From Candidatus Omnitrophota bacterium (GTDB taxonomy: Bacteria > Omnitrophota > Gorgyraeia > Zapsychrales > JANLHA01): a stretch of 64,000 bases of DNA. The notes below the pieces were generated by a model, which was given only the letters and a program-made list of their open reading frames with translations, searched no databases and was not told the DNA's origin. This document shows positions 10,565-53,006 of this stretch, one piece after another; position 1 is the first letter of the stretch, and each line of letters starts with the position of its first letter. The stretch spans positions 382,331-446,330 of the forward strand of contig JACKFJ010000002.1 in NCBI GenBank assembly GCA_020632535.1, given 5' to 3'. The position numbers and the translations under genes are program-made.

Positions 10565-10713
10565 AGAGGTAATATGAAAAAAGGGGCGGTTTGCGTTCAT
10601 AAAAATATAGGTAAACAAAGATACTAATTTTTCTGATGAAGAAATGTTAGGTGTTTAATAATAAAGAATAAGCAAGAAAAGTTCGATAAACTTATAGAGT
10701 TGGACAAGATGAG

Positions 10714-12138
10714 ATGGAAACAATAAATCTAAGAGTGATGTTTTCAACGCGGGGCGCGCTTGCCAGTCTTTCGTTATCCATGTTGCTGTCGTCACTCGGC
10801 ACAAGCATTGCTAACGTCGCTTTGCCAACATTGATGCAAACATTTAGTACTAGCTTTCAAAAGGTTCAGTGGATTATTCTCGCGTATCTTCTTGCTATTA
10901 CAACGCTGATTGTCAGCGTAGGGCGACTGAGTGATATAATTGGCCGTCGGAGATTGTTGTTGGTTGGACTTTCTCTTTTTGTAGCGGCTTCGGTTTTGTG
11001 TGGTATTTCTTCCTCGCTTTGGATGTTGATCGCTGCCCGCGCGGTACAGGGTCTAGGAGCAGCTATTATGATGGTTCTTACATTGGCGTTTGTTAGTGAA
11101 ATAATTCCAAAGGATAAAATTGGTAGTGCGATGGGGTTGCTTGGAGCAATGTCTGCAATCGGCACAGCTTTCGGGCCGGCTTTGGGGGGTGTACTGATTT
11201 CTAAGATCGGTTGGCAATCAATTTTTCTTGTTAACATACCGCTGGGTATTCTTGCTTTTATATTTGCGTATCGTTATTTGCCCGTTGATCGTCAAGAACA
11301 AATAAAAGATGAGATTAGTTTTGATAATGTGGGTACGTTGATACTTGTTTTAACGCTTGCGGCATATGCGCTTGCGATGACGATTGGGCGTGGTAGTTTT
11401 GGTTTGCTTAATATAGTTTTGCTATTGATAGCTATTTTGGGGAGCTGTCTCTTTATGTTTGTTGAAGCGAAGGTAACGTCGCCTTTGATTCCATTAGACA
11501 TGTTTCGTGATCCATTATTAAGCGCGGGTCTTATTATGAGCGCGCTTGTATCAACGGTGTTAATGGCAACGCTGGTGGTTGGACCTTTTTATCTTTCTTA
11601 TGCGCTTGAACTTAACGTTGCTCATGTTGGAATGGTCATGGCGGCTGGTCCGCTTGTCGTTGCGTTTACGAGTGTGCTTGCGGGGCGCATGGTAGACTGG
11701 TTTGGCGCACAACTTATAACTATTATTGGGCTTATCGGTATAGCAGTAGGTTCGTTCAGTTTGTCTGTTATTCCGATCAGATTTGGTATTCCGGGTTATA
11801 TTTTTCCTGTAGTAATTATTACATTGGGTTATGCGTTGTTCCAGACAGCGAACAACACTGCTGTTATGAAGAATGTTCTTCGGGATCAGCGGGGTGTGAT
11901 TTCCGGTATGCTTAATTTATCTCGCAATCTTGGACTTATTACTGGAGCATCTCTTATGGGTGCGGTTTTTGCGTTTGCATCAGGGACAAGTGACATTGCA
12001 ACGGCCAATCCTGAGGTTGTTGCCAGCGGTATGCGTATCACATTTGTAGTTGCTACGGTTTTGATCGTCTTTGCATTTGTTGTTGCAGTGGTAAGTCAGG
12101 TTCTTGCAACACGCAAAGCACTTTTTGCGAATGCTTGA
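10714..12138 (+). CDS. MFS transporter, DHA2/EmrB-like (14-TM drug:H+ antiporter type)
   Basis: 474 aa, 14 hydrophobic segments, MFS motif A GRLSDIIGRRRLL and motif C-like GPALGGVL. Confidence 0.85.
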   Translation: METINLRVMFSTRGALASLSLSMLLSSLGTSIANVALPTLMQTFSTSFQKVQWIILAYLLAITTLIVSVGRLSDIIGRRRLLLVGLSLFVAASVLCGISSSLWMLIAARAVQGLGAAIMMVLTLAFVSEIIPKDKIGSAMGLLGAMSAIGTAFGPALGGVLISKIGWQSIFLVNIPLGILAFIFAYRYLPVDRQEQIKDEISFDNVGTLILVLTLAAYALAMTIGRGSFGLLNIVLLLIAILGSCLFMFVEAKVTSPLIPLDMFRDPLLSAGLIMSALVSTVLMATLVVGPFYLSYALELNVAHVGMVMAAGPLVVAFTSVLAGRMVDWFGAQLITIIGLIGIAVGSFSLSVIPIRFGIPGYIFPVVIITLGYALFQTANNTAVMKNVLRDQRGVISGMLNLSRNLGLITGASLMGAVFAFASGTSDIATANPEVVASGMRITFVVATVLIVFAFVVAVVSQVLATRKALFANA

Positions 12139-12177
12139 TGATGTGCATTGTGTAAGGAGATAGGCATTGTTCACGTT

Positions 12178-12681
12178 ATGAATAATCAGGAAAGAATTTA
12201 TCATTTTGAAGTTCCTCAAAACCTGCTACCCGAGATCACCGCAGAGCAGGGCATTGCTAATTTTGAAGTTCCGCATGACTTAATACCGCAAATTTCTAAA
12301 GAGTATGGTGTCGTTGATCGGCGCAAGGCGACAAATCAATATATGCAGATAGTGCATGCGCTTATTCTGAGTATTTTGTTGATTGTTTTGATGATATTCA
12401 TTATAAAAAAGTTGTCGAGAATTTTTGGCAAGTTTGATTTGGTGTTAAAGAGTATCAAAAGCATTTTGAATGTTATCGCGCGAATTTGTTTGGCGTTTTT
12501 GATGTCAATGATTCCTGCGACACTTGTTTTTATGGCGACGTGTTGGGTAAGTTGCAAATACTTGATTCAATGTGTTGATGTTCAGACGGTGGCGGCATAT
12601 ATTTTGGGGTTATTGTTTGGTGGGATCATATGGTTTTTCGCTTTTCTTTGGCTGTTGGGTAAGTTTTTCAAAAGGTCGTGA
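12178..12681 (+). CDS. Hypothetical membrane protein with N-terminal 19-aa tandem duplication
   Basis: HFEVPQNLLPEITAEQGIA / NFEVPHDLIPQISKEYGVV (nt 12202-12315) followed by 3-4 TM helices. Start uncertain (TTG 12148 or ATG 12178). Confidence 0.45.
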   Translation: MNNQERIYHFEVPQNLLPEITAEQGIANFEVPHDLIPQISKEYGVVDRRKATNQYMQIVHALILSILLIVLMIFIIKKLSRIFGKFDLVLKSIKSILNVIARICLAFLMSMIPATLVFMATCWVSCKYLIQCVDVQTVAAYILGLLFGGIIWFFAFLWLLGKFFKRS

Positions 12682-12788
12682 TGGTTGTTTTGAATATAAT
12701 CAAATTACATCGTAGGATATTCGCAAGCCCCCCTAAGTTTTAAAGATAAGATTTAAAAAAGTTTTAATCGTGTGCTTTAATAATAATC

Positions 12789-14795
12789 ATGTCTGATTTT
12801 ATTCCTAAAGATTTTTCCTTGAGGCGTACCATTGCATTGAATTCTGGTGTGCATTTTGTTCGGCCAATGCTTATGGCGGGTTTTGTTGGCAGTGCGACAG
12901 GTTTTCTTGTCGTGGGGTTTATTAAATTAATTGAATGGACCACGGCTTTTTTATTTAATCCTGCGATTACAAATACTTTTTGGGTTATCTTTGTTCCTGT
13001 GCTTGGAGGTTTGATTGTCGGACCATGGATAGAATTTTTAGCTCCGGAGGCCAAGGGGCATGGTGTTCCTGAGGTTTTAAAAGCGATTGCCCTGCGCGGT
13101 TCACGGATTAGGCCGATTGTTGGCATTGTTAAGATTGTGACATCGGTTATTTCCATCGGCAGTGGTTTTTCTGTTGGTCGAGAAGGGCCGATTGTGCAAA
13201 TCGGATCGGCTCTTGGCTCGTCCTTAGGTCAATTATTAAAATTGCCAGAATCACGAATCAGAAATTTGGTAGCTTGTGGTGCGGCAGCGGGTATCGCAGG
13301 AGTTTTTAATACTCCGATTGCTGGTGTCATGTTTGCGTCCGAGGTGATATTGCGTGATTTTGGCGCCAATGCTTTAAGTACAGTTGTCGTTGCGGCGGTG
13401 TCCGCTAGTATTGTTAGCCGTATATTTTTAGGGGATCATCCTTCTTTTATGGTGCCTTCGTATCATCTGCATCATCCTTCAGAAATATTCCTATATTTTA
13501 TTCTTGGTATTTTAGCAGCTGTGGCAGCTGTGTCATTTATGGTGACTTTGGAGTGGTCGGAAGTAAAATTTGATAAATGGCGGTTTCCGGTGTGGTTAAA
13601 GCCGGCTTGTGCTGGTCTTTTGGTCGGTTGCTTAGGATATTGTTTTCCTCAGATTTTTGGTTCTGGTCTTTCAGCCATTCAGGATGCTTTGCACGGGAAT
13701 ATTCCACTGCAAATTTTAGTTTCCTTAATTTTTGTAAAAATATTAGCGACTTCACTCTCACTGGGCGGGGGAAGCTCGGGTGGGGTTTTTGCGCCGTTAT
13801 TGTTTATTGGTGCGGTTTTGGGAGGTGCGTTTGGACAGTTGTCTGCTTTGCGTTCGGTGGTGCCGATAGCTCCGAGCGGCGCTTATGCTTTAGTTGGCAT
13901 GGCCAGTGTTTTTGCTGCCGCGGCCCGAGCGCCGATTACTTCGATTTTGATTGTATTTGAATTGACTGGCAGCTATGGCATGATTTTGCCTATTATGGTT
14001 GCGGTTGTAACCGCGACTTCAATAGCAAAAATAATTCGCAAAGATTCTATTTACTTAGGAAAACTAAAAAGTAAAGGGATTGATATTAACTCATTTGAGG
14101 AGGCTCGTGTCTTAGAGGGGTTAAAAGTTAGTGATGTTATGAGTCAAGAATTTCATCTTGTGCGTCAAGACATGGCCGCAAAAGAATTGATTAAGTTTAT
14201 GTCGACAAATATGACAAAAAGCATTTTTGTGATTGATCATAAAAATACTTTAGTGGGGATAGTTAAGTCGGTGGAATTTAATAGAATATTATTGGCTGAG
14301 GGTGAGGATTTTTTGATTGCGCAGGACATCGCAATTTCAGTTAAGGAATATACTTTTCCGGATGAGCCTTTGAATGAAGCGGCAAAACTTATGGCTGCGC
14401 ATCATTTGACCGAAATGCCGGTGGTAGATTCCCTTAATACGACTAAAGTTATTGGAGTTTTAAGGTCTGAGGATGTGTTTCGAGTTTATGCTGAGCATGT
14501 TTCTCGTCGCGGAGAAATTACCAGCCGGCAGGCTCACGATGAGGCGGTTCCGTCGGATATGATGACAGTTGTTTTTACCGTAAATCCTCGCTCATTAATT
14601 GTTGGGAAAACAATTAAAGAATTGAACTTGCCGGAGGGTGTTCACTTTAATTTGGTTAAGCGCGGTGCCAGGTTTTCGGTGCCGCACGGCAATATGCTGA
14701 TGCTGATTAAAGATCGTATTACTGTCATTGTAATGCCTCAGCAAGAAGAGGCCTTGCGGGAGTGGCTTAAGCGAAACAGATTAAAAGATTTTTAG
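12789..14795 (+). CDS. ClC-family voltage-gated chloride channel/antiporter with C-terminal CBS pair and TrkA-C (RCK_C) domain
   Basis: Selectivity motifs GSGFSVGREGP, GVFNTPIAG and GGVFAP. CBS-like repeats lie at about aa 450-570, and the C-terminal LPEGVHFNLVKRG...GDxL pattern is TrkA-C-like. Confidence 0.9.
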   Translation: MSDFIPKDFSLRRTIALNSGVHFVRPMLMAGFVGSATGFLVVGFIKLIEWTTAFLFNPAITNTFWVIFVPVLGGLIVGPWIEFLAPEAKGHGVPEVLKAIALRGSRIRPIVGIVKIVTSVISIGSGFSVGREGPIVQIGSALGSSLGQLLKLPESRIRNLVACGAAAGIAGVFNTPIAGVMFASEVILRDFGANALSTVVVAAVSASIVSRIFLGDHPSFMVPSYHLHHPSEIFLYFILGILAAVAAVSFMVTLEWSEVKFDKWRFPVWLKPACAGLLVGCLGYCFPQIFGSGLSAIQDALHGNIPLQILVSLIFVKILATSLSLGGGSSGGVFAPLLFIGAVLGGAFGQLSALRSVVPIAPSGAYALVGMASVFAAAARAPITSILIVFELTGSYGMILPIMVAVVTATSIAKIIRKDSIYLGKLKSKGIDINSFEEARVLEGLKVSDVMSQEFHLVRQDMAAKELIKFMSTNMTKSIFVIDHKNTLVGIVKSVEFNRILLAEGEDFLIAQDIAISVKEYTFPDEPLNEAAKLMAAHHLTEMPVVDSLNTTKVIGVLRSEDVFRVYAEHVSRRGEITSRQAHDEAVPSDMMTVVFTVNPRSLIVGKTIKELNLPEGVHFNLVKRGARFSVPHGNMLMLIKDRITVIVMPQQEEALREWLKRNRLKDF

Positions 14796-14848
14796 ATTTG
14801 GAATAAAGCTAAATCAAATTCAATATTTACGAAATAATTTTTTTAAAA

Positions 14849-15892
14849 ATGCCGACATTGGTAAAAACTCGAAATCGTACGATCGATGTTCTCAAAGGAC
14901 TTGCGATCGTTCTTGTTGTTTATGGTCACGTCATTCAGCGCTCTATGGTTGTCGGTGGGGCTGATTTCTTCTTAAATCCTGTTTTTAAAATCATTTATAC
15001 ATTTCACATGCCGCTTTTTGTTTTTATAAGCGGCTATTTGATTGCGGCGAGTTTAAAACGCCGCAGCATTAAGGATACTTTTACAATTCGCGTAAAAAGT
15101 TTGTTTATTCCCTTTGTTGTTTGGAGTCTTTTAGACATGGTGGTCAATGATTTGATCAATTCATCGGGTGGGTTTAACGTTTTCGAATATTTATTTTTGA
15201 AACCTTCGGTGTGGTTTCTTTTCACATTGTTTGTTGCTAGTGCTTTGGTTTTAGCGTCGGTAAAGCTACAAAGAAAGTTTGGGTTAGTGATCTTTGCTTT
15301 GATTTATCTTCTTATACTCTTTATCCCTTTTAATGAATACGCGGCTCTTTATTACATCAAATGGTTTTATTTGTTTTACGTAGCTGGTTATCTGATTCAT
15401 GAGTATGGTTCTGGATTTATAGCACGGTTTAATAATACGGCTACATTTGTGACAGCTTTTTTTATCTTTTTTGTTCTTTTGCCATTTTGGACACGCAATG
15501 ATTATATTTATGTGAATAAAATGCATTTTTTGTCAGCAGATTATGTCCTGGAAATCTTACGATACGGTTATGTTTATCTTATTGGATTTGTTGGTATTGT
15601 TTTGGCGTTCTTTATTGGAGCGCATTTGGCGAGAACCAAAACGGTTTCTTTGTTAGGAAACATTGGAATTTATTCTTTGGATATTTATTTGCTGCAGAGG
15701 TATCTTGTCGAAGGTTTGTATCCCAAGATTTTGACAAAGTTTAATTTAAGCTTCGATTACAATTCGCCGTTATTTCTTTGTGTTTTTTGTCCTTTGGTTG
15801 CTGTCATCGCGGTAGCGGTATGTATTTTTGTCACTAAATTATTAATAAGAAGGATCGATATTCTTAACACTTTATTGCTGGGTCACCGGTAA
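14849..15892 (+). CDS. Acyltransferase family 3 (membrane O-acyltransferase)
   Basis: N-terminal RNRTIDVLKGLAIVLVVYGHV and about 10 TM helices, typical of PF01757. Confidence 0.8.
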   Translation: MPTLVKTRNRTIDVLKGLAIVLVVYGHVIQRSMVVGGADFFLNPVFKIIYTFHMPLFVFISGYLIAASLKRRSIKDTFTIRVKSLFIPFVVWSLLDMVVNDLINSSGGFNVFEYLFLKPSVWFLFTLFVASALVLASVKLQRKFGLVIFALIYLLILFIPFNEYAALYYIKWFYLFYVAGYLIHEYGSGFIARFNNTATFVTAFFIFFVLLPFWTRNDYIYVNKMHFLSADYVLEILRYGYVYLIGFVGIVLAFFIGAHLARTKTVSLLGNIGIYSLDIYLLQRYLVEGLYPKILTKFNLSFDYNSPLFLCVFCPLVAVIAVAVCIFVTKLLIRRIDILNTLLLGHR

Positions 15893-17754
15893 TGTTTTCA
15901 CAGTTTGTAAAATTAAAAAGTCTGCTTTCCCTTCTTGGAATTCTCATTATTGTCACTATCGCATTCTCTCCGACGCTGTTTAATGGATTTAGTAAGAATG
16001 ACGACCCCGGACATTTATTAGAAAATCCCACATTGCGCGCTTTGACTCCGGAAAACATCCGTGCGATCTTTCAGAATATTATTAACACCACGTATAACCC
16101 GTTAACGATTCTTTCTTTCGCGCTTGAGTATCGTTTCTTTGGATACAATCCGTTTGTTTATCATTTAAACAATCTGCTTTTACATTTGGGTGTTGTTTCC
16201 TTAATATTTTTCTTTTTTCAAAGAATGGGGCTTTCGCTCTTGGCGGCATCCATTGGCGCTTTGATTTTTGGTATTCATCCGATGCATGTTGAATCGGTGG
16301 CGTGGGTGACGGAAAGAAAGGATGTTTTATACGCATTTTTCTACATGCTCGCACTTCTTGCGTATTGGAATTATGTCAAATTGGGGAAGAGGTCATATTA
16401 TTGGGGAAGTTTGGTGTGTTGTTTTTTAAGTGTTTTGGCTAAACCGATGGCTTTGAGTTTGCCGTTGATTTTATTGTTATGTGATTGGTGGATGGGACGT
16501 AAATGGACGCGTGCAGTATTTTTGGAAAAGATATTTTTTGTCACTATTGTTGTTACGATCGCAAGTGTTACGTATATCTATAACGCGCGCGTTCCATGGC
16601 AAACTGTTAGTGAAGCAATGATGCTGTGGGTTTGGTGTTTGATTTTTTATATTCGTAAATTTTTTGTTCCCGATCAATTTATAACTTTTTATCAATTTCC
16701 GCAGCCGCTTTCGTGGACAAATGCGTCATTTGCATTATCAGGAATCGCGGGTGTCGCTCTTATTTTTTTGCTTTTATATTTCCGTCGTAACAAATTGTTT
16801 ATTTTTGCCATGTTGTTTTATTTTCTTTCGATCTTTTTCCTATTGCGATTCGATGATGTTGAAAATATTAACCCGGTTTCAGATCGTTTTATGTATTTGC
16901 CTAGTGTTGGATTTTGTGCATTATTGGGCGCTGGATTTGCGTGGTTGCTGAGTCATAAAACTGTGCGACATTTGCGTAAATGTCTAATTGTAGGGTTCAT
17001 TGTTATGGCATTGTTTTTGGCAGTAAAAACATTTGTTCAATGTCGAAATTGGCGAGATGGCGCGATTCTCTGGAGCGCGGTGATTGAGCGTTCGCCGAAT
17101 TTAGCAATGGCTTATATTCAGCGAGGAGCCGCATATCATGAAAAGGGCGATCTTGTGTCCGCGAAAGCGGATTATCTGAAGGCAATTGAGTTAAAAAATG
17201 ATCCGTATGCTCATAATAATTTGGCGACGATTTATAAGGAAACGGGGCATTTTGAAGAAGCAGAATCGGAATATACGATAGCCATTAAGATTAAGCCTGA
17301 CTTTTGGGGTGCTTATTTTGATCGTGGTAATCTTTATCGTGAAGCCGGAAAGTTGGTTTTGGCAATCGCGGATTATACAAAAGTATTAGAACTTTTGCCG
17401 GGTTACGCGGAGGCTTACGCGCATCGTGGTACGGCTTATTTATTAAATCAGGAAGATGATCTTGCTTTTCAGGATTTTAATTATGCGATACGTTTTGACC
17501 CGCGCGCTGTCAATGCCGTTAATAATCGGGCGGTGATATACGCAAAGCGCGGTCATTTTGAGAAATCAATTGATGATTTTTCGCTTTCGATTTTTTTAGA
17601 TCCTGAAAATGCTTCGGTGTATTTTAATCGAGGTCTTGCGTATTCACAAAACCGCCAGTATGATCGGGCTATTGTCGATTTTGACAAGGCTTTAGAGATA
17701 GATCCAAATTATCAACAGGCATATCAACACAAAATGGAAATCATAAGACGATGA
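15892..17754 (+). CDS. GT-C-fold glycosyltransferase-like membrane protein (PMT_2/TMTC/DUF1736-like) with C-terminal TPR repeats
   Basis: DD motif after TM1 (FSKNDDPGH), HPMHVESVAWVTERKDVLY (DUF1736-like), at least 9 TM, then about 6 TPR units (AYIQRGAAYHEKGD..., AYFDRGNLYREAGK...). Confidence 0.7.
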   Translation: MFSQFVKLKSLLSLLGILIIVTIAFSPTLFNGFSKNDDPGHLLENPTLRALTPENIRAIFQNIINTTYNPLTILSFALEYRFFGYNPFVYHLNNLLLHLGVVSLIFFFFQRMGLSLLAASIGALIFGIHPMHVESVAWVTERKDVLYAFFYMLALLAYWNYVKLGKRSYYWGSLVCCFLSVLAKPMALSLPLILLLCDWWMGRKWTRAVFLEKIFFVTIVVTIASVTYIYNARVPWQTVSEAMMLWVWCLIFYIRKFFVPDQFITFYQFPQPLSWTNASFALSGIAGVALIFLLLYFRRNKLFIFAMLFYFLSIFFLLRFDDVENINPVSDRFMYLPSVGFCALLGAGFAWLLSHKTVRHLRKCLIVGFIVMALFLAVKTFVQCRNWRDGAILWSAVIERSPNLAMAYIQRGAAYHEKGDLVSAKADYLKAIELKNDPYAHNNLATIYKETGHFEEAESEYTIAIKIKPDFWGAYFDRGNLYREAGKLVLAIADYTKVLELLPGYAEAYAHRGTAYLLNQEDDLAFQDFNYAIRFDPRAVNAVNNRAVIYAKRGHFEKSIDDFSLSIFLDPENASVYFNRGLAYSQNRQYDRAIVDFDKALEIDPNYQQAYQHKMEIIRR

Positions 17755-18605
17755 TGGCGCTTCCGAGAAAAAGGATTCCTTGGCAGGATCGTGCGCGTTT
17801 AGGAAACATGCGAGCTTTCTTTATGACACTGATAGAGGTTGTGATCAGTCCTTTTGATTTCTTTGAAAAGCTTGAGATTGAAGATTCTTTTGAGGGGCCA
17901 TTGTTTTTTGCTTTTCTTAATACATTGTATTTAACCGGCCCACTTTTACCGCACATCATGTCTTGGGTGCATTTTCTCGCTTTTATTTATATTCTCGTCG
18001 TGACGCCAATCCTTTATTTTGTTTTTGCTTTCATTATTCAGAAGTATTTTAATTTTTGGGAAGAAGCCGTGGATTACAAAAAGATTTTTAGTGTACTGGC
18101 TTATGCGACGCCGGCTTTTATTCTTGTATATGTTCCCGTCGTAGGTTATGGACTTGCGATTATCACATATACGGTTTTGGTGTGTCTTGGGCTTATGCAA
18201 ATTCAGAATACGAGTTTTGGGAAAATAATAATGGTCGCGTTGATTGTGCCATTTTTAGTCTTGATTCCGTATGGCGCTGTCCGTTACGCAAATTATTGGG
18301 TCAAAATTCATCCGATCATTGATGTGGAAGTTGAAGCACAGAAAATTCTGGCGGCTCTTTCGATTGCGGCGGAAAACTACGCGGCTCACAATGATGGTCA
18401 TTATCCAATGGATAGTCAATCTTTGACAGACAAGACGCAACAATATCTCGCGTACGATTATTGCGGCACACTTCGAAATGGTTACTATTTTAGTTGTGAT
18501 TTTCGCAGTTATGGCTATTTTTTAAAAGCCAGTCCGCAGGGTTGGCAAGGACGGGGCAAGAAAACATTTTTTGTCACAACTGGCGGACAATTGCGTCAGC
18601 AATAA
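17751..18605 (+). CDS. Yip1-like polytopic membrane protein with C-terminal pilin-head-like domain
   Basis: N-terminus IPWQDRARLGNMRAFFMTLIEVVISPFDFF is Yip1-like, followed by 5 TM. The C-terminus AENYAAHNDGHYP...YDYCG...GYYFSC...SPQGWQGRGKKTFFVTTGG resembles type IV pilin/pseudopilin globular domains. The start overlaps the upstream stop. Confidence 0.45.
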   Translation: MMALPRKRIPWQDRARLGNMRAFFMTLIEVVISPFDFFEKLEIEDSFEGPLFFAFLNTLYLTGPLLPHIMSWVHFLAFIYILVVTPILYFVFAFIIQKYFNFWEEAVDYKKIFSVLAYATPAFILVYVPVVGYGLAIITYTVLVCLGLMQIQNTSFGKIIMVALIVPFLVLIPYGAVRYANYWVKIHPIIDVEVEAQKILAALSIAAENYAAHNDGHYPMDSQSLTDKTQQYLAYDYCGTLRNGYYFSCDFRSYGYFLKASPQGWQGRGKKTFFVTTGGQLRQQ

Positions 18606-18609
18606 ACTG

Positions 18610-19317
18610 CTAAACTTTGGTGGTTAATGATGGTGTAGCGCAGGAATATAGGACTTGTGGTTGTTGGCAGATATTGGCAACGATGCTTGTGGCGTTATTT
18701 TCTAGGGTTTTGGCATCTTCTTTTTCGATACGAAAAAGCCGTTCGAAATCAAAAAATTGCTTTGGGTTTTGGGTAGTGACGCGGATTTTGGCGCGATAAT
18801 GCCCCGGAGCCCAATAATTCATGTTTTTGAGTCGCGCTTCGGCGTCAACGACAAGTTTAAGTTTTCGAAATTCTAAGAATAGAGTTCCCAGTTTGGCGGT
18901 TTTTCCCTCCTTGGACGCGATGATCACGGATTCTTCCCATGAATCTTTAATGGCTTTGAGCAAAGGTTTCATTTCTGAAAAGCGTCCATTATCAATAAAC
19001 AATGTATTGTGCTCATGGGATTTATCGGGCGCAATTGTGAACTTGGAACACATTGTCAAGTCCATGGCGGAAAAATTGCCCATTCTATAGTGAGCCGGCC
19101 GGAAGGCAAACCAGTCCATAAAATGTGAAACTTTTCCACTTTGGTCAGTGATTTCGACGCAGATATTATAAACCAAAACAACCGCGTTTAAAGCTGTTAT
19201 CGTGCCTGCAATCGCGAAAGTAGGACCGTAATGACTATATCCAATTTCAGCAATAGGCGAAATGTGATTACTTAATCGTGGCTTACTGATAAAATCACGC
19301 CAAACATTGATGGCCAT
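18610..19317 (-). CDS. Hypothetical protein (235 aa), no family recognised
   Basis: Long ORF convergent with 17751-18605 and divergent from the giant repeat gene. One hydrophobic segment (FAIAGTITALNAVVLVYNI). Confidence 0.5.
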   Translation of the reverse strand: MAINVWRDFISKPRLSNHISPIAEIGYSHYGPTFAIAGTITALNAVVLVYNICVEITDQSGKVSHFMDWFAFRPAHYRMGNFSAMDLTMCSKFTIAPDKSHEHNTLFIDNGRFSEMKPLLKAIKDSWEESVIIASKEGKTAKLGTLFLEFRKLKLVVDAEARLKNMNYWAPGHYRAKIRVTTQNPKQFFDFERLFRIEKEDAKTLENNATSIVANICQQPQVLYSCATPSLTTKV

Positions 19318-19517
19318 TTTTCCCTCGAAATATTAAATTTTCTTTCTCACGAGTATAGCAAATTCTCCATATTTATAAGTAGAAAAAAATATAATTTCTT
19401 CAAAATCAATTTGAAAATGATGTCGTTTTTGTTTTACCTTTGACGCTTTCATAATATAATAAAATTCATCTTTACGATAAAGTGAGTGTTTCCCTTTTAA
19501 AACTCAAAGGAGCAGCT

Positions 19518-22500
19518 ATGAAATTGCGCAGCATTCTTACCTTCTTTATTTTAGCTATGGGTTTTTATCCCGCAACCAGCGGTTGGTGTCAGGAGCAATC
19601 AACACCAAAAGCTCCGAACATTACTCAGAAGCTCGATATGCTTATCAAGCGCTATGACGATGCCGTAAGTGAGAATAAAGTGATTAAAGAAAAAATGAGT
19701 GCCGCGCAACAGTCCGTCGAGAATTATGAAAAGAGGATCGCTGGTCTTGAGCAAGATCTTGCGACAGCAAATGAAAAGCAAGCCGCTCAAAACAGAGAAA
19801 AAGCGAGTCTTGCGGAGCAAATTTCTGCCCTCAAAGAACAAATTGCCAAAACTCCCAGTACTCCTGCCGTTGATGTTGATAAGCTTACCGCCCCATTGAA
19901 GACCGAAATTACAAAATTACAAAATCGATTAAAAGAATTAGAAAAAACATCCGCGTTAAAAGACATTGACGCGTCGCAATCGGAACAATTGCGCGCGCAA
20001 ATTGCTGCCTTGGAAGATGAATTAAGAATCAAGGGTCAGTTCATCAAGGAAGGCGATGCAAAAGTTGAGGTATTGAATCAGGAAAATGAACAATTGCAAC
20101 AAAGATTAACGCAGGAAAAGCGTCAGTCCAAAGATTTGCAGTCGCGTCTTGCTAGTCTGGAAAGTAAACCAGTAATTAAGGTTGATGAACAGGCGATGGC
20201 TTCACTAAAGCAAGAAATTAAGGATTTGCAGGATAAGCTTAAACTCAGCCAAACGCGCGCGAATGATCGGGCAGCGTCGGATGAAAAGGCATTAAAGAAT
20301 CAAATACAAACTTTGCAGGATGATTTGGCGGGCGCCAAGGCGCAATTAAAGAGTGCGGTAGACGCCAAGAAGCCGCTTGAACAGGAATTGGCAGATCTGA
20401 AGGAAAAAGTCGCTTTAGCTCAAACGTCGAAGGACAAAAATCTGCTTTTGCAGCAGCGCGTTGATTTTTTAAATAAGGAGCTCGCAAATGTTAAAGAAAG
20501 CGCCGCGTCAGAAAAAGGATTAGAAGCTCGTGTGGAACAATTGCAAGCCCAGTTAAAGAAGGCGGAAAAAGTTTCCGCGGAAGAAATTGCTTCCGTGAAA
20601 ACGCCACTACTAGACAAAATTCAAGCGTTGGAAAAACAGCTAAAATTAAAGAACAGTGCGGTCAGTGAAGAAAGTTCGGCTCAGTTAAAAGCACAGATCA
20701 AGGAATTGGAAGCTAAGTTGCGCGTTTCTGAAAACAGTGTTCCTAAAAGAATCGAAGAAGCTCGTCAATCTTTATTGCAACAGGTCGCTCAACTTGAGTC
20801 GAAAGTAAAATCTCTCGAGGGGTATGGTCCGCAGCAGATTGCTCAAGCGCAAGCACCGCTGAAGGCAGAGATCGCGACATTGCAGCAAAAGTTGCGCCAA
20901 GCAGAAAAAGTTTCCGCGATGCAGGCCCCGCAAAAAAAGACGGATGACGCGCAAGTCGCGCAATTGCGCGCGCAGATCGATAGTTTGCAGAATGATCTTA
21001 AAGTGAAAGGCGCGTTTATTAAGGACGGAAATAGCCAAGTTGAAAATTTAATTCAGCAGGTAGAAGCGTTAAAGTCGCAGAAAATTCAGTTAGAGCAAAA
21101 TTTAGCTAAAGAAAAACGTCAGTCGGTAGAGTTGGAAGGACAATTGGCAGCGAAAGAAAGTCAAGCAGATAAAAACATTGTTGAAATGACAGAAAAGATT
21201 GCTGAAGCCAAAGCGCCATTGCAAAAGCAAATTGACACTTTGCAAGAACAGTTGCGCGCGACGCAGAAGTCAGTTCCAGGTAAGATCGAAGAGGCTCGTC
21301 AGCCTTTGTTAAAGCAAGTTGCGGATTTGCAGGAAAAGTTAAAGGCAAGCAGCAGTGTTGAACCAAAGAAAATTGCCGAAGCGCAGGCGCCGTTGCAAAC
21401 CAAGATCAAAGAATTGGAAGAACGCTTAAAGGCTGGACAAGCCAGTGTTCCGAATCAAATCAATGAAGCTAAGGCGCCATTGCAAAAGCAAATTGACACT
21501 TTGCAAGAACAGTTGCGCGCGACGCAGAAGTCTGTTCCAGGTAAGATCGAAGAAGCTCGTCAGCCTTTGTTAAAGCAAGTTGCGGATTTGCAGGAAAAGT
21601 TAAAGGCAAGCAGCAGTGTTGAACCAAAGAAAATTGCCGAAGCGCAGGCGCCGTTGCAAACCAAGATCAAAGAATTGGAAGAACGCTTAAAGGCTGGACA
21701 AGCCAGTGTTCCGAATCAAATCAATGAAGCTAAGGCGCCATTGCAAAAGCAAATTGACACTTTGCAAGAACAGTTGCGCGCGACGCAGAAGTCTGTTCCA
21801 GGTAAGATCGAAGAAGCTCGTCAGCCTTTGTTAAAGCAAGTTGCGGATTTGCAGGAAAAGTTAAAGGCAAGCAGCAGTGTTGAACCAAAGAAAATTGCCG
21901 AAGCGCAGGCGCCGTTGCAAACCAAGATCAAAGAATTGGAAGAACGCTTAGAGGCTGGACAAGCCAGTGTTCCGAATCAAATCAATGAAGCTAAGGCGCC
22001 ATTGCAAAAGCAAATTGACACTTTGCAAGAACAGTTGCGCGCGACGCAGAAGTCAGTTCCAGGTAAGATCGAAGAGGCTCGTCAGCCTTTGTTAAAGCAA
22101 GTTGCGGATTTGCAGGAAAAGTTAAAGGCAAGCAGCAGTGTTGAACCAAAGAAAATTGCCGAAGCGCAGGCGCCGTTGCAAACCAAGATCAAAGAATTGG
22201 AAGAACGCTTAGAGGCTGGACAAGCCAGTGTTCCGAATCAAATCAATGAAGCTAAGGCGCCATTGCAAAAGCAAATTGACACTTTGCAAGAACAGTTGCG
22301 CGCGACGCAGAAGTCTGTTCCAGGTAAGATCGAAGAAGCTCGTCAGCCTTTGTTAAAACAAGTTGCGGATTTGCAGGAAAAATTAAAAGTTACAGAAAGT
22401 ACGGTTCCACAAAGAATCGAAGAAGCTAAAGCTCCGTTGACGGATCGTATCAATTTCTTAGTTGAAAAAATGAAGAGTAATGACGCGCAAACGCAACGGC

Positions 22501-25388
22501 AAGTCAGTGAAGCCAAAGAGCCATTGCAAAAGCAAATTACGGCTTTGGAAGCCCGATTAAAAGCTGGGCAAGAAAGTGTTCCTGTTCAAATCGATGAAGC
22601 CAAAGCGCCACTAGAGAAGGAAGTGAATCAATTGCGCGCGAAGCTGGAAGAAAATAGTCGAACATTGCGTGATAAGGATGCCGCGTATCAGGCGTTGGTG
22701 CAAGAGAAAAATAAGGCGATACAGAATTTAAATAATAAGTCAAATGAGAGCAATGATTTAGCCAAGAAAATCGTTTCTTTAGAGGAGCGTCTTAAAAAAA
22801 CAGATGCTCAATTGCCATCACGAATCGCGGGAGAAAAAGCTCCATTACAAAAGCAGATTGAAAATTTGCAAGTACAGCTTAAAGAGACTCAAAATTCGGT
22901 GCCGCAAAAAATTGCTGAAGCTCGAAAGCCTCTCCTTGACCAAGTTGCGGATTTACAAAAGAAAATACAATCGATTCAGTCAGAACAGCCGCAGAATATT
23001 GCTCAAGCCAAAGAACCGCTTTTAAAACAAATTGAAAATTTACAAGCTCAACTCAAAGTTGCTGAAAATGCTGTCCCGCAGAAAATTGCCCAAGCTCGTA
23101 AAGCGTTGATGGCAGATATTGATGATTTGAGTTTGCGATTAAAGGCGACGGAAGATGCATTACCGTCGAGAATTAATCAGGCCAAGGTACCTTTGGAGAA
23201 TCAGATCAAAGATTTACAAAAACAGTTGAAAGACAAAGACGCCGCGCAGAGTCAACAATTCGCGCAGGCACAAAAAGTTTATGAAGAAAAAGTTAAGAAT
23301 TTACAGGAACAGTTAAAAGCTTCGGAAGTTGCTGGTGTGCAGAAGGCGAATGCCGCGCGTGCTCCACTTGAAAAAGCTTTGCAGGCTTTAGATCGTGAAT
23401 TGCAAGCGAGTCGTGATGCGATTGCGCCTAAAGTCAATGAAGCCAAAGCTTCTTTGCAGAAGGAAATTGATAATTTGCGTGCCCAATTAAAGGCTCAAGA
23501 GAACAGTGTTCCGTTGAAGATTAATGAAGCGAAGGCGCCTTTGTTAAAGCAGGTTGAAGCATTGCAGGCGCAATTGAAAGAAACGCAGAATTCAATTCCG
23601 GCTAAAATTGCGGATAGTCGTAAGCCGTTAACTGATGAAATCAACAGTTTGCAGAACAAACTTAAAGTTTCTGCGGATGATTATGCCAAGAATATTGAAC
23701 AGACGAAATCGTCGTTTGTCGAAAGAATCAAGTCTTTGGAAAATCAAATTAAACTCAATGAAAAAACAGCGCAAGATCGTTTGGCTCAGACCAATGTCGC
23801 CGCTAAAGAACAGAATAATGTTCTAAAGAAAGAATTGGATAGCGCGCAATCTTTAATCGCGCAAAAAGAGCAGGCAATTGTCCGTTTGCAGCGTGACAGT
23901 GAGCAATCGGCTAAGGTTTTAAATAGCAAAGATGAGCAAATTCGAAAGCTCAATGAGAATATCGCGACTCTTCATTCGCAAGTCGACGCGATCAAGAAAA
24001 ACCTTGATGAGAGTTTGGCTAAGATGAGGACAGAATATGACGCAAAGTCTCGTGATTTTAATGACAATATGAAATTAGCCGAGAAATCTTGGGCGGCTAA
24101 AGTTGAAGAGACCAAGTCTTCATTTCAAAATAAAATTAAGCAATTGCAGGATCAATTGAAAGATAGTGAGCGGGCAGGAAATGAAAAAGTCGCTCAGGTT
24201 TCCGCGGCTTTTGAAAACAATATTAAAAAACTGCAGGCTCAGTTGCGAGATAGTGAAAAGGCGTCCGACGAGAAAGTTAGCGCGGCTAAGGCGCCTTTAC
24301 AGGACAAGATCAATACATTGATTGGGGAAATTAAGAATGTCCGCGATTCGGTTACTGCTCAAGTAAGCCGTGCTAAAGAAGCGGTGGTGGAGCAAAATCG
24401 TTTGCTTCAAGCGGAAGCGAAAAAAGCCGCTGATTCGTATGAGCGCAAACTTGTGGAAAAGGATAAGGCATTCTCGAAATTGCAAGAACAAATTAGCGCG
24501 GCAGAAAATAAAGCCAATGGTTTGATGAAAGCCAATGATAAAAGTGCTAATGAACTTGCTGCTGCGGTTCAAGAGAATAAGAATTGGACGCAGAAGTATG
24601 CTAGTCTCGAAGAGAAATTGCGAAACACCGAGAAGACGTTGAACCAAAAGTCTGATGAAGCTCGCAAATCGTTTGAAGACACGATTAAACAATTGCAGGA
24701 AAAGGTGCGCACGACGGAAAATTCTTTTGCCAGCCGCATTAGTCAGGAACAAAAAGGTTTGCAGGATAAAATTAAACAATTAGAACAGCAGAACAGTCAA
24801 ACCCAAAATGCGGCTAATGAGAAAATCGCGGCGGTAACCGCGTCGCTCGAGGAAAAAATTCGTTCATTGAATGATCTTTTAGAGAAGACCAATGCCGCGG
24901 TGGCTCAAAAGATCGCGGCGGAAGTTAAGGGACGTGACGACAAGATTGCGTCGTTTGACAAACAGGCTCAGGAATGGGACAAAGCCATAAACGATAAGCA
25001 AACGCGCATTGATAGTTTGCGCAAGGAAATCGATAAGGCGACGTTGGCTTTATCGGCCGCGCAACAGGAAAATATTTTCTTGAGTAAGAAATTAGAGGAT
25101 GCTAAACGTCAAATGGCCGCGCCATCTTCAGCTGAAGCTATCACCAAGGAATTGACGGAAAAGAATCGTTATCTTGTTGAGCGTTTGGCTGGTGCTCAGG
25201 ATCAGTTAAAGCAAAGCGAAATGCAGATCAATAAGTTGATGGACGAAGCTGGCGCTTCAGAAAAAGACTATTATGATCTTCTTGATGAAAAGGAACTTAT
25301 GGAAGCCAAGCTTCAGGAGTTATATAAAAAGTATAATATTTCGCAAGGGGCTGCTCAGGGAGCCGGACGGAAAATCGTTGTTAAGTAA
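19518..25388 (+). CDS. Giant secreted repeat protein (1,956 aa) built from proline-punctuated 29-residue helical repeats
   Basis: AGGAG lies 6 nt upstream of ATG 19518. Signal peptide MKLRSILTFFILAMGFYPATSGW. K/E/Q/A/L-rich with a recurring unit xPLxxxIxxLQxxLKxxxxxVPxxIxEAK. Confidence 0.85.
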   Translation: MKLRSILTFFILAMGFYPATSGWCQEQSTPKAPNITQKLDMLIKRYDDAVSENKVIKEKMSAAQQSVENYEKRIAGLEQDLATANEKQAAQNREKASLAEQISALKEQIAKTPSTPAVDVDKLTAPLKTEITKLQNRLKELEKTSALKDIDASQSEQLRAQIAALEDELRIKGQFIKEGDAKVEVLNQENEQLQQRLTQEKRQSKDLQSRLASLESKPVIKVDEQAMASLKQEIKDLQDKLKLSQTRANDRAASDEKALKNQIQTLQDDLAGAKAQLKSAVDAKKPLEQELADLKEKVALAQTSKDKNLLLQQRVDFLNKELANVKESAASEKGLEARVEQLQAQLKKAEKVSAEEIASVKTPLLDKIQALEKQLKLKNSAVSEESSAQLKAQIKELEAKLRVSENSVPKRIEEARQSLLQQVAQLESKVKSLEGYGPQQIAQAQAPLKAEIATLQQKLRQAEKVSAMQAPQKKTDDAQVAQLRAQIDSLQNDLKVKGAFIKDGNSQVENLIQQVEALKSQKIQLEQNLAKEKRQSVELEGQLAAKESQADKNIVEMTEKIAEAKAPLQKQIDTLQEQLRATQKSVPGKIEEARQPLLKQVADLQEKLKASSSVEPKKIAEAQAPLQTKIKELEERLKAGQASVPNQINEAKAPLQKQIDTLQEQLRATQKSVPGKIEEARQPLLKQVADLQEKLKASSSVEPKKIAEAQAPLQTKIKELEERLKAGQASVPNQINEAKAPLQKQIDTLQEQLRATQKSVPGKIEEARQPLLKQVADLQEKLKASSSVEPKKIAEAQAPLQTKIKELEERLEAGQASVPNQINEAKAPLQKQIDTLQEQLRATQKSVPGKIEEARQPLLKQVADLQEKLKASSSVEPKKIAEAQAPLQTKIKELEERLEAGQASVPNQINEAKAPLQKQIDTLQEQLRATQKSVPGKIEEARQPLLKQVADLQEKLKVTESTVPQRIEEAKAPLTDRINFLVEKMKSNDAQTQRQVSEAKEPLQKQITALEARLKAGQESVPVQIDEAKAPLEKEVNQLRAKLEENSRTLRDKDAAYQALVQEKNKAIQNLNNKSNESNDLAKKIVSLEERLKKTDAQLPSRIAGEKAPLQKQIENLQVQLKETQNSVPQKIAEARKPLLDQVADLQKKIQSIQSEQPQNIAQAKEPLLKQIENLQAQLKVAENAVPQKIAQARKALMADIDDLSLRLKATEDALPSRINQAKVPLENQIKDLQKQLKDKDAAQSQQFAQAQKVYEEKVKNLQEQLKASEVAGVQKANAARAPLEKALQALDRELQASRDAIAPKVNEAKASLQKEIDNLRAQLKAQENSVPLKINEAKAPLLKQVEALQAQLKETQNSIPAKIADSRKPLTDEINSLQNKLKVSADDYAKNIEQTKSSFVERIKSLENQIKLNEKTAQDRLAQTNVAAKEQNNVLKKELDSAQSLIAQKEQAIVRLQRDSEQSAKVLNSKDEQIRKLNENIATLHSQVDAIKKNLDESLAKMRTEYDAKSRDFNDNMKLAEKSWAAKVEETKSSFQNKIKQLQDQLKDSERAGNEKVAQVSAAFENNIKKLQAQLRDSEKASDEKVSAAKAPLQDKINTLIGEIKNVRDSVTAQVSRAKEAVVEQNRLLQAEAKKAADSYERKLVEKDKAFSKLQEQISAAENKANGLMKANDKSANELAAAVQENKNWTQKYASLEEKLRNTEKTLNQKSDEARKSFEDTIKQLQEKVRTTENSFASRISQEQKGLQDKIKQLEQQNSQTQNAANEKIAAVTASLEEKIRSLNDLLEKTNAAVAQKIAAEVKGRDDKIASFDKQAQEWDKAINDKQTRIDSLRKEIDKATLALSAAQQENIFLSKKLEDAKRQMAAPSSAEAITKELTEKNRYLVERLAGAQDQLKQSEMQINKLMDEAGASEKDYYDLLDEKELMEAKLQELYKKYNISQGAAQGAGRKIVVK
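21213..22385 (+). repeat. Tandem array, 261-bp unit x about 4.5 copies, near-identical (inside the giant gene)
   Basis: Unit starts (gcgccattgcaaaagcaaattgac) at 21213, 21474, 21735, 21996 and 22257. I saw only three variable positions between copies. Confidence 0.95.
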
Positions 25389-25884: not shown

Positions 25885-26484
25885 ATGAAAAATCCGGCCA
25901 TTGTTATATATTCTCTCGCGACATTCTTTATTCTGCTGGGGACTTTATGGTTTGCCTGTATTCAAATCCGTTGTGAAGAAATTTCACCGCGCCCGGTTTT
26001 GTCAAAAGCTGTCTCCGTTTCAGCGGCAGGTATTTCACTTCCCGTGGTCAAGAAAGTTCGGTCTGTTTATGCTAAACCTTATCATGATATTCTGTTTTGG
26101 ATTATTGCCGGTGCCGAGGTTTTTGTCGCGACATTCTATGTGTTAGCTGGTGTTTTTCTTTTTAAGCGATTTGTGCTCGCGCGAGTCATGGCCTTGACGG
26201 TATTGGGTATGGATATTGCTTTTAAACTGTTGGTGATTTTATACATGAAGTTCGCAGCGATTCCTTTGAGTGCATTGACGAAGAACGAAAATATATTGCA
26301 ACTGTATTTTATGCCAAGTCAAAAAATCCATCACTCTTTTTCAGCGGTTGTCACAGGTTTAAAATTTTATTTGCCGGGGAATATTTTTTATTTAATGACA
26401 GAATTGGTCTTCTTTGGAGTGTGTTTTACCATTTTATCTCGTCCGGAGATTAAAAATTATTTAATGCGATCACAAAAAATCTAA
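25885..26484 (+). CDS. Hypothetical integral membrane protein (5-6 TM)
   Basis: ORF tightly packed in the operon (7-nt gap), with a hydrophobic periodicity. Confidence 0.5.
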   Translation: MKNPAIVIYSLATFFILLGTLWFACIQIRCEEISPRPVLSKAVSVSAAGISLPVVKKVRSVYAKPYHDILFWIIAGAEVFVATFYVLAGVFLFKRFVLARVMALTVLGMDIAFKLLVILYMKFAAIPLSALTKNENILQLYFMPSQKIHHSFSAVVTGLKFYLPGNIFYLMTELVFFGVCFTILSRPEIKNYLMRSQKI

Positions 26485-26493
26485 AGGGTTAAT

Positions 26494-26916
26494 ATGAATC
26501 GATGTGTTATTTTGGGATTGAGTATATTGCTTGCAGGATGCGCGAGTGTGGAGACAGGGCCAGCAAAACCCAGTAACACCGACATCATGCAGCACAGGTT
26601 TATTTCTCTTAGCCAACTGCGTACCGGTTTGACCCGCGCGGAGGTGGTAACACTTTTAGGTAAGGAAATTGTGATGGGATACGCTTTGGTTGATGAAGCG
26701 GGCGATCAATATAAGCCGATTACCGTTGGGAATCCTTACCGCGTAGAAGTCATCGAAAAGAATAAAAAGATGTATGCCGTTGATTATTATCTGATCGGCA
26801 TTAAGACGGCCGATGATACAGTTAGCGACGATGAATTGGTACCGTTGATATTTAATAATGATCGATTGATTGGCATCGGTTGGGATTTTTTTAATCGGTT
26901 TTTTGCCAAGAAGTGA
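26494..26916 (+). CDS. Lipoprotein with SmpA/OmlA (BamE)-like segment
   Basis: Lipobox LLAGC at residues 13-17. LRTGLTRAEVVTLLGKE resembles the BamE-type fold signature. Confidence 0.55.
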   Translation: MNRCVILGLSILLAGCASVETGPAKPSNTDIMQHRFISLSQLRTGLTRAEVVTLLGKEIVMGYALVDEAGDQYKPITVGNPYRVEVIEKNKKMYAVDYYLIGIKTADDTVSDDELVPLIFNNDRLIGIGWDFFNRFFAKK

Positions 26917-52636: not shown

Positions 52637-53006
52637 TACGGATTTTGAAATCCGTTTTTATGAAGACATTTTGAGGGAAAAGCCAGACTTTATTGAAGTC
52701 TTAATCGCCATAGGTGATTTGTATACAAAAAAAGGTTTGACCGAAAAGGGCTTGGACGCGGATTTGCGTCTTTCCCGTTTGCGTCCAGATGATGCGATGG
52801 TGCTTTATAATCTTGCCTGCAGTTATTCTCTTATGCAGGATGTTGACAAAGCGTTTGGCGCGATTAAGCTTGCCCTTGAGTGTGGATATGATGATTTGAA
52901 TTATCTTGAGGTTGATGATGATTTAGAGCATTTGCGTAAAGATGAGCGTTTTCAGGAATACTTTAGCCGTATCCGTCGGGAAAAAGTTCCGCAAACCAAG
53001 TCGTGA
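52614..53006 (+). CDS. Small TPR-like protein
   Basis: 130-aa ORF overlapping both neighbours. Helical-repeat pattern (LIAIGDLYTKKGLTEKGL..., VLYNLACSYSLMQDVDKAFGAIKLALECGY). Confidence 0.5.
   Translation: MVKKRSDDTDFEIRFYEDILREKPDFIEVLIAIGDLYTKKGLTEKGLDADLRLSRLRPDDAMVLYNLACSYSLMQDVDKAFGAIKLALECGYDDLNYLEVDDDLEHLRKDERFQEYFSRIRREKVPQTKS

Follow-up and report, generated by a model that had tools for sequence, protein, structure and literature searches.

What would a bacterium of the Omnitrophota build from an exported protein of 1,956 residues? The question is raised by one gene on contig JACKFJ010000002.1 of a Candidatus Omnitrophota genome (assembly GCA_020632535.1), within the 64,000-nucleotide stretch from 382,331 to 446,330 analysed here (the window; nucleotide positions below count from its first letter). 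The Omnitrophota are abundant and uncultivated. An earlier note on this DNA, made from its letters alone, described the gene product as a giant secreted protein built from a proline-punctuated repeat of 29 residues. We favour, with a probability of roughly 55%, the reading that it is an exported structural segmented coiled coil. It would be a Sec-exported, almost entirely alpha-helical protein forming a long homo-oligomeric segmented rod in the periplasm or at the surface of an ultra-small cell, and a place as a major envelope or surface structure is plausible.

A giant gene with an export signal

The open reading frame (ORF; 19518-25388, forward strand) has the 1,956 codons read earlier and encodes a product of about 210 kDa. 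AGGAG does precede the ATG, with a measured gap of 5 nt. The N-terminus reads MKLRSILTFFILAMGFYPATSGWC followed by QEQ, which comprises a basic start (MKLR), a 13-residue hydrophobic core and then PATSGWC with a small-residue cleavage region. Signal peptides, here and in all relatives, were judged by inspecting the sequences; the one that the earlier note called clear is borne out. Cleavage is predicted after GWC, by alignment with the SWA/QES site of an orthologue (...TNSWA/QES, L005p). Export, also claimed earlier, gains support from the conservation of the signal peptide in this orthologue, in the complete genes of the orthologous loci L011, L012 and L014, and in every other family member with an intact N-terminus (including P0003-P0008 and P0018). 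We infer that the protein resides beyond the inner membrane and serves there as a scaffold or other structural element.

A lipoprotein was considered and rejected: TSGW-C puts Trp at position -1, with no lipobox [LVI][ASTVI][GAS]C. The Cys at the putative cleavage point is not kept in L005p (SWA-Q, without Cys). The C-terminus of the protein reads ...GAGRKIVVK, with neither LPXTG nor a hydrophobic tail. The GRKIVVK tail was tried as a conserved docking strand and dropped, as it occurs only in the three closest orthologues.

A 29-residue unit with a continuous hydrophobic seam

Compared with itself, the protein shows identity peaks only at offsets of 29, 58, 87 and 116 residues (0.25, 0.23 and 0.29 at the first three; never above 0.13 at the remaining offsets). 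A hidden Markov model (HMM) of the unit picks out an unbroken run of 17 full units (28.6-44.6 bits each), a 49-residue heptad insert, and then 10 further contiguous units (Table 1). Elsewhere it finds degenerate units only, at about amino acids (aa) 363-461, 1537-1620 and 1696-1801, so that the total is 27 clear and about 10 weak units. The repeat is thus real, and the strict period once claimed for nt 20590-24350 holds only in the 17-unit and 10-unit blocks; the suggested figure of about forty units is close only when the weak ones are counted. At 21203-22387, a 261-nt unit (87 aa, or three 29-residue units) is present 4.5 times at 98% identity (Tandem Repeats Finder). A larger module was also said to occur twice, and this duplication is confirmed (43% identity, E = 4e-21), at aa 142-225 and 462-560 rather than at 170-230 and 505-570.

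Among 18 distinct units, the first proline is present in 15 and the second in 12. The consistently non-polar positions are Leu3, Ile/Val7, Leu10, Leu14, Val21, Ile25 and Ala28 only. Six of them are hydrophobic in 72-100% of distinct units, and together with Ala28 they all fall within a 75-degree stripe when the unit is wound at eight turns per 29 residues. Consistent with this, the hydrophobic Fourier spectrum peaks at exactly 3.625 residues (29/8) in both blocks, with a power of 15.0 in the first and 7.35 in the second, while no other period exceeds 1.7. Over the N-terminal 340 residues the peak lies at 3.49, the classical heptad value, and the regions at aa 1398-1700 and 1700-1956 have periods of 3.60 and 3.615, respectively. 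The core spacings in the unit are 4-3-4-3-4-4-3-4, equivalent to one heptad and two hendecads. The two 4-4 steps centre on Val21 and Leu3, and the prolines are residues 22 and 2; since each proline thereby adjoins one of the two register shifts, each motif would lengthen a stretch of heptads by precisely one residue.

AlphaFold was run on two segments as monomers. The model of aa 547-1001 (single sequence) is all helix with breaks every 87 residues, and its predicted local distance difference test score (pLDDT) of 62 was judged too weak to interpret. The model of aa 1100-1300 (pLDDT 77) is an almost continuous helix with one-residue breaks just before P22. Searched against the Protein Data Bank (PDB) with Foldseek, it returned nothing below E = 0.1, only generic helical hairpins. 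It had been proposed that the prolines split each unit into a long and a short helix. Such a split is not clearly borne out: the modelled helix is nearly continuous, and the hydrophobic seam stays in phase (3.625) across both prolines. The companion statement, that the repeat is unlike a continuous coiled coil of the SMC or M-protein type, is supported, as it differs from a plain heptad coiled coil.

Such units could instead form an alpha-solenoid, with a helix from P2 to K15, a loop over residues 16-21 and a helix from P22 to K29 stacked into a superhelix. Two prolines per unit, positions 17-20 rich in Ser, Thr, Gly and Asn, and the breaks modelled just before P22 would all suit this fold. 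However, 6-7 hydrophobic residues per 29, in one stripe, are too few for a solenoid core; the modelled helix passes through most prolines; no Foldseek match was a solenoid; and relatives lengthen the unit by whole heptads, in phase. We consider a solenoid very improbable.

A family rule of heptads plus one residue

Three relatives recovered by a word-indexed search share a motif with the giant protein, not its 29-residue period. The motif has the consensus L-x7-P-x2-I-x2-A-x2-P-L-x3-I-x2-L-x3-L, and the 29-residue repeat is the compact form of this family-wide pattern (S-V-P-x2-I-x2-A-K-x-P-L-x3-I-x2-L-x3-L). It recurs in relatives every 78, 71 or 29 residues; where the period is 71 or 78, the motifs are separated by 42 or 49 residues (6 or 7 heptads) of plain heptad coiled coil. 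A family profile built from 46 motif copies and searched against 1.84 billion cluster representatives matched 63 proteins or clusters at E <= 1e-3, of which 23 reach E <= 1e-10; many are giant (1,323 to 4,143 aa).

The spacing between motifs in the relatives (<=170 aa) equals 1 modulo 7 in 98 of 123 cases, with about 18 expected by chance, and thus, by the family rule, each motif brings one residue on top of an integral number of heptads. Spacings of 78 (58 times), 29 (20 times) and 71 (12 times) are the commonest, and the leftover ones are mostly 2 modulo 7, as expected from one missed motif in between. In the window protein, 24 motif copies were located by regular expression and profile, and 20 of the 23 spacings are whole heptads plus one. 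The standard family spacing of 78 survives there once, from aa 1022 to aa 1100. Judged by these spacings, the window protein and its orthologues are a compact form of the family that has lost the spacer.

The members fall into two subfamilies. The 29-type (the window, L005, L006/P0014 and L010-L014) shares its locus, an N-terminal motif K[IL]DxL[IL]x[KR]Y[DE] (KLDxLLxKYD) and a C-terminal module QQENIFL...KDY[YF]x[LI]LD (QQENIFL...KDYYxLLDE). The 78-type (P0001, P0002, P0006, P0007, P0008 and P0018) ends in E[IL]+xALDLIE. P0001 (2,823 aa) represents only the 3' portion of a gene of about 3,900 aa, which a 100-N scaffold gap interrupts (L002 4891-8000), and the 1,029-aa open frame upstream of the gap begins with a signal peptide. 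Electrostatics were considered as a further conserved trait and rejected, given isoelectric points (pI) of 5.1-9.8 across the family.

In four 78-type loci (those of P0001, P0002, P0007 and P0008), a small secreted protein is encoded directly upstream of the giant gene, and in L007 and L008 (P0007 and P0008) its stop overlaps the start of the giant gene. Three of the four small proteins are clearly homologous (34-42% identity), and the one in L008 matches weakly, via its tail. The three homologous ones share a conserved N-terminal domain (GEIINVNxxYKIAFTDLSxxYLxxGDxVEV...YLEVSExSGAISKL) and a coiled-coil tail. No homologue of this small protein was found in the window or in L005.

All taxon-labelled members are Omnitrophota (L005, P0004, P0013, P0014 and the window itself), a group that the earlier note had listed among those to search, and literature on giant genes of Omnitrophota makes no mention of coiled-coil proteins of this kind. 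On present sequence data, the family is rare, previously undescribed, giant and predicted to be exported, and restricted to the Omnitrophota as far as taxon labels reach.

Orthologues at a conserved locus

A collinear orthologue of 1,750 aa (L005p; 43% identity) is encoded in 'Candidatus Omnitrophota bacterium isolate SJ432'. The conserved C-terminal module, used as a metagenome query, recovered five further loci (L010-L014). Collinear orthologues of 1,233-2,319 aa are present in L005, L011, L012 and L014, and L006, L010 and L013 hold fragments. At least seven assemblies besides that of the window thus carry an orthologue at this locus. These seven loci share parts of one gene order: upstream a 235-aa gene on the opposite strand, then the giant gene, and downstream DUF3192, TrmB, DacA, DsbA and GlmS.

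The super-repeats differ among orthologues (87 aa, in 4.5 copies, in the window; 58-aa-based in L005p), and yet individual units such as APLxxRINFLVEKMK are still recognisable in distant orthologues. Thus, the arrays are old, with recent local expansions added. An independent Logan assembly of the same sequencing run (SRR12358676, contig L015) is 100% identical to the window from 10610 to 21242, where it breaks off 40 nt inside the initial copy of the 261-nt unit. Compared with one another, the first four copies show 3-5 substitutions, arranged as a mosaic, and this speaks for their being distinct.

Two readings would remove the giant protein from the envelope altogether: a cytoplasmic coiled coil of the SMC, SbcC or cytoskeleton type, or an assembly chimera. 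The first can draw on public labels of the relatives P0003/P0007 ('chromosome segregation ATPase', 'Exonuclease SbcC'), the second on the short-read assembly that breaks at the repeat. Coiled-coil similarity alone can trigger such names. No Pfam domain for the SMC/Rad50/SbcC ATPase head halves, the hinge or the zinc hook was found at E <= 1, the signal peptide is conserved throughout the family, and the automatic names are artefacts. As for the chimera, which had been raised as a concern in the earlier note, the gene is by these comparisons real, conserved and not chimeric, because several independent assemblies have collinear intact orthologues at this locus; the doubt is confined to the number of copies. 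Both readings are largely refuted, and we give them hardly any weight.

From seam to a proposed rod

The giant protein, read as a segmented coiled coil, probably forms a parallel, two-stranded rope. A dimer is suggested because beta-branched residues occupy the 'a' positions and Leu the 'd' positions, according to established coiled-coil rules. As the seam period of 3.625 is near that of an unstrained helix, coiled-coil geometry would have the supercoil nearly cancelled, giving a nearly untwisted rope with a regular joint about every 4.3 nm. A rise of 0.148 nm per residue gives about 116 nm for the 27 clear units and as much as about 290 nm for the mature chain when extended.

Cells of the Omnitrophota measure about 0.2 um (about 200 nm) in width (PMC10066038), and their envelope has two membranes, as indicated by the Omp85 gene that the window contains. 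A rod of a length comparable to the cell cannot stand across the periplasm. Instead, it would run along or around the envelope, project as a fibril, or bundle laterally into a lattice.

Several observations weigh against such a rod. Lys, Arg and Gln are abundant on either side of the seam, and if two chains paired in parallel and in register, K24 and K29 would repel each other. Acidic residues are enriched opposite the seam, in what is partly the class-A pattern of lipid-binding helices. True coiled coils rarely hold internal prolines, and thus the joints may be real breaks. The AlphaFold models are monomers that cannot speak to oligomerisation, and the first reached a pLDDT of only 62. As the Logan contig stops at 21242, the number of near-identical 261-nt copies rests on a single assembly. 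Finally, the surroundings of the giant gene show no sign of an anchoring domain, a partner or a secretion system.

In another reading, the protein is a fibrillar, M-protein-like surface adhesin that attaches to host or prey, with expansion and contraction of the repeats tuning its reach or varying its antigens. A role as adhesins has been suggested for large ORFs in Omnitrophota and other ultra-small organisms (PMC10066038). The predicted export and rod-like shape would suit this role, as would the lineage-specific super-repeats (4.5 copies of 87 aa here, 58-aa-based in L005p) and the near-identical tandem DNA copies typical of length-variable surface proteins. However, neither the sequence nor Pfam reveals a wall or outer-membrane anchor, LPXTG, an autotransporter barrel or a terminal globular binding domain, and no outer-membrane secretion system was found nearby. 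Moreover, the conserved end modules and units (APLxxRINFLVEKMK) point to structural constraint, not diversifying selection. We regard an adhesin as unlikely.

Feature map and neighbouring genes

Features of the locus are compiled in Table 1. Upstream of the giant gene lies a sigma-70-like promoter candidate. It is weak, as promoter-like matches around 19433-19460 are no more numerous than the regional shuffle expectation. No terminator-like site was found on the forward strand after the stop of the giant gene.

Table 1. Positions of the giant gene, its segments and associated features (window coordinates unless a locus is named)
Feature	Position	Strand	Basis
235-aa protein, divergent, no Pfam family	18610..19317	-	conserved neighbour of giant gene
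Sigma-70-like promoter candidate (TTTACC, 16-nt spacer, TATAAT)	19433..19460	+	consensus match alone
Shine-Dalgarno AGGAG	19508..19512	+	direct reading
Coding sequence, 1,956 aa, predicted exported coiled-coil protein	19518..25388	+	ORF and collinear orthologues
Predicted signal peptide, aa 1-24	19518..19589	+	sequence inspection
N-terminal canonical heptad coiled coil, aa 25-362	19590..20603	+	hydrophobic period 3.49
Conserved KLDMLIKRYD motif, inside aa 25-362		+	common to L005, L011, L012, L014
KGxFIKxG module, copy 1, aa 142-225	19941-20192	+	module duplication
Three to four degenerate 29-residue units, aa 363-461	20604..20900	+	unit HMM
KGxFIKxG...EKRQS module, copy 2, aa 462-560	20901..21197	+	43% identity to aa 142-225
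Near-identical 261-nt three-unit tandem array, 4.5 copies	21203..22387	+	Tandem Repeats Finder
Repeat block 1, 17 contiguous units, aa 566-1058	21213..22691	+	unit HMM; period 3.625
49-residue (seven-heptad) spacer, aa 1059-1107	22692..22838	+	motif spacing aa 1022 to 1100 = 78
Repeat block 2, 10 contiguous, mutually diverged units, aa 1108-1397	22839..23708	+	unit HMM; period 3.625
Helical region, aa 1398-1786: non-repeat stretches and degenerate units (aa 1537-1620, from 1696)	23709..24875	+	
C-terminal conserved module, aa 1787-1956, ATLxLSxAQQENIFL...EKNRYLVE...KDYYxLLDE	24876..25385	+	defines 29-type subfamily
Small secreted partners, 78-type loci	L007 6168-7004; L002 4093-4890; L003 7166-7906; L008 6573-7004		

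The divergent 235-aa gene is arranged in the same way in L005 (63% identity), L012 (30%) and L014 (26%). Its product has 20 homologous clusters among 5.8 billion, and the sole taxon-labelled one is from Omnitrophica and identical to the window copy. The conserved adjacency suggests that this protein may be a functional partner of the giant. On the other side, 3' of tadA, a conserved pair of genes (25885-26916, forward strand) encodes a 199-aa multi-pass membrane protein that belongs to no known family, and a DUF3192 protein whose lipobox reads LLAG/C; the DUF3192 gene is present in L006 and L010-L014, and the 199-aa gene in L005, L006, L010 and L011.

The neighbouring genes in the window are housekeeping or general envelope genes. 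Farther away, a 947-aa ORF (53003-55846, forward strand) joins a Peptidase_M1 domain (aa 284-505, 88 bits) to an Omp85-type barrel at the C-terminus (aa 724-914, 54 bits); it is unusual for an aminopeptidase-N-like domain to be fused with a barrel of the outer membrane. Two ORFs of more than 500 aa (40962-42557, reverse strand; 44588-46291, forward strand) have no Pfam or NCBIfam match.

Comparison with known systems

The failure to assign the protein to a known family, recorded in the earlier note, is upheld. On the full protein, Pfam gave only generic coiled-coil matches (Apolipoprotein at 58.3 bits), phmmer found no match among PDB sequences at E <= 0.01, and in a profile search of the PDB the whole motif was absent from solved structures. 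There, only the half after the proline matched, and solely designed coiled-coil peptides (CoilSer and Coil-VaLd).

When the repeat region was excised and each score set against the family cut-off, the matches were Apolipoprotein (PF01442; 87.0 bits, cut-off 90), Baculo_PEP_C (77.1, cut-off 38), Myosin_tail_1 (55.2, cut-off 38.1) and SF-assemblin (PF06705; 32.2, cut-off 30.6), with ApoLp-III at 34.1 bits. Two global shuffles and two within-unit permutations of the region lose all of these matches. Read in reverse, the same sequence scores 90.3 bits against Apolipoprotein and 67.5 bits against Baculo_PEP_C. Therefore, the matches reflect the ordered, amphipathic, proline-punctuated pattern and not descent. 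Among orthologues, L005p reaches 32.5 bits against Apolipoprotein, L011p and L014p give nothing, and none of the three matches SF-assemblin. Apolipoprotein homology was rejected on the reversed-sequence control and the orthologues. The resemblance to proline-punctuated apolipoprotein helices that had been noticed earlier thus stands as a pattern and falls as homology, as the forward score stays below the cut-off and the period is 29, not 11 or 22.

Like the giant protein, apolipoproteins A-I, A-IV and E and apolipophorin-III are built from tandem proline-punctuated amphipathic helices rich in Glu, Lys, Gln, Leu and Ala, with a partial class-A charge arrangement and a seam period near that of the unstrained helix. 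They differ in having 11- or 22-residue repeats (seam 3.67, against 3.625 for 29 residues) and a broader hydrophobic face, and relatives of the giant protein carry long stretches of plain heptads. The protein could accordingly be an apolipoprotein-like lipid binder, whose amphipathic repeats lie flat on a membrane or wrap lipid with the prolines as kinks, coating the cell's own outer membrane or extracting lipid from host or prey. The near-threshold Apolipoprotein score, the ApoLp-III match and their loss on shuffling or permutation, which shows that it is the ordered amphipathic pattern that scores, would be consistent with this, and a straight seam of 3.625 suits a helix lying on a surface. 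Lys and Arg are enriched at the seam edge and Asp and Glu opposite; subtracting the mean angle of the basic residues from that of the acidic ones gives +17 degrees for the window protein and +23 degrees for its orthologue, compared with +42 for ApoA-I and -8 for tropomyosin as controls. Omnitrophota also show host-dependent traits (PMC10066038), which would fit such a binder.

Against lipid binding stand the reversed-sequence score, the low or absent orthologue scores and the period. The hydrophobic face is narrow, with about 22-24% core residues in a stripe of only about 75 degrees, compared with the wide non-polar face of a class-A helix. In addition, the 42 or 49 residues of plain heptads between the motifs of relatives are rod-like, and net charge varies across the family (pI 5.1-9.8). 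We consider lipid binding the main rival and yet a minor possibility. That the array is a bacterial, exported functional analogue of the exchangeable apolipoproteins that arose independently of the animal proteins, a giant proline-kinked amphipathic belt with a straight seam by which ultra-small, host-dependent Omnitrophota would coat or stabilise a highly curved outer membrane, or strip and carry lipid from host or prey, is unlikely.

For the segmented rod that we prefer, the closest formal analogue is SF-assemblin/beta-giardin (PF06705) of algal and Giardia striated fibres. SF-assemblin has a 29-residue repeat of four heptads plus a skip residue and a rod period of about 4 nm, and assembles into filaments (PMC2119799). 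The giant protein shares this 29-residue arithmetic. However, SF-assemblin is eukaryotic, cytoplasmic and microtubule-associated, about 280 aa long, with a non-helical head and a rod without prolines, whereas in the giant protein a signal peptide precedes about 1,930 mature residues, and prolines bracket the register shifts. Membership of the SF-assemblin family was rejected, as the 32.2-bit match is not reproduced in the full-length protein or in three orthologues. The common 29-residue design is most likely convergent.

In the myosin rod, with its skip residues, and in the stutter-rich bacterial coiled-coil protein Scy, with its 51-residue repeat, regular non-heptad insertions lower or cancel the supercoil and create local joints. 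Both are cytoplasmic, lack prolines at the discontinuities and have no sequence relationship to the giant protein; the Pfam Myosin_tail match (55 bits) is a generic coiled-coil signal. Streptococcal M protein, Thermotoga Omp-alpha and Braun lipoprotein Lpp are, like the predicted product of this gene, exported coiled-coil rods of the envelope or surface. They are 58-500 aa long and carry LPXTG, a membrane segment, or a lipobox and peptidoglycan link. The giant protein has no such anchor and is 4-30 times longer.

The family, with members of more than 4,000 residues and a signal peptide wherever the N-terminus is intact, is a candidate lineage-specific envelope or surface scaffold for the Omnitrophota. 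For proteins of this kind, Pfam matches to Apolipoprotein, Baculo_PEP_C and the myosin tail, and names such as SMC or SbcC, are artefacts of periodicity. Under the 'heptads plus one' rule, a conserved proline flags each of the two register shifts, and the spacer varies in whole heptads (0, 6 or 7), so that the family offers a natural experiment on how helical ropes accommodate skip residues and prolines. The segmented coiled-coil rod is a known structural type; what is new is a family with a proline-bracketed 'plus one' motif.

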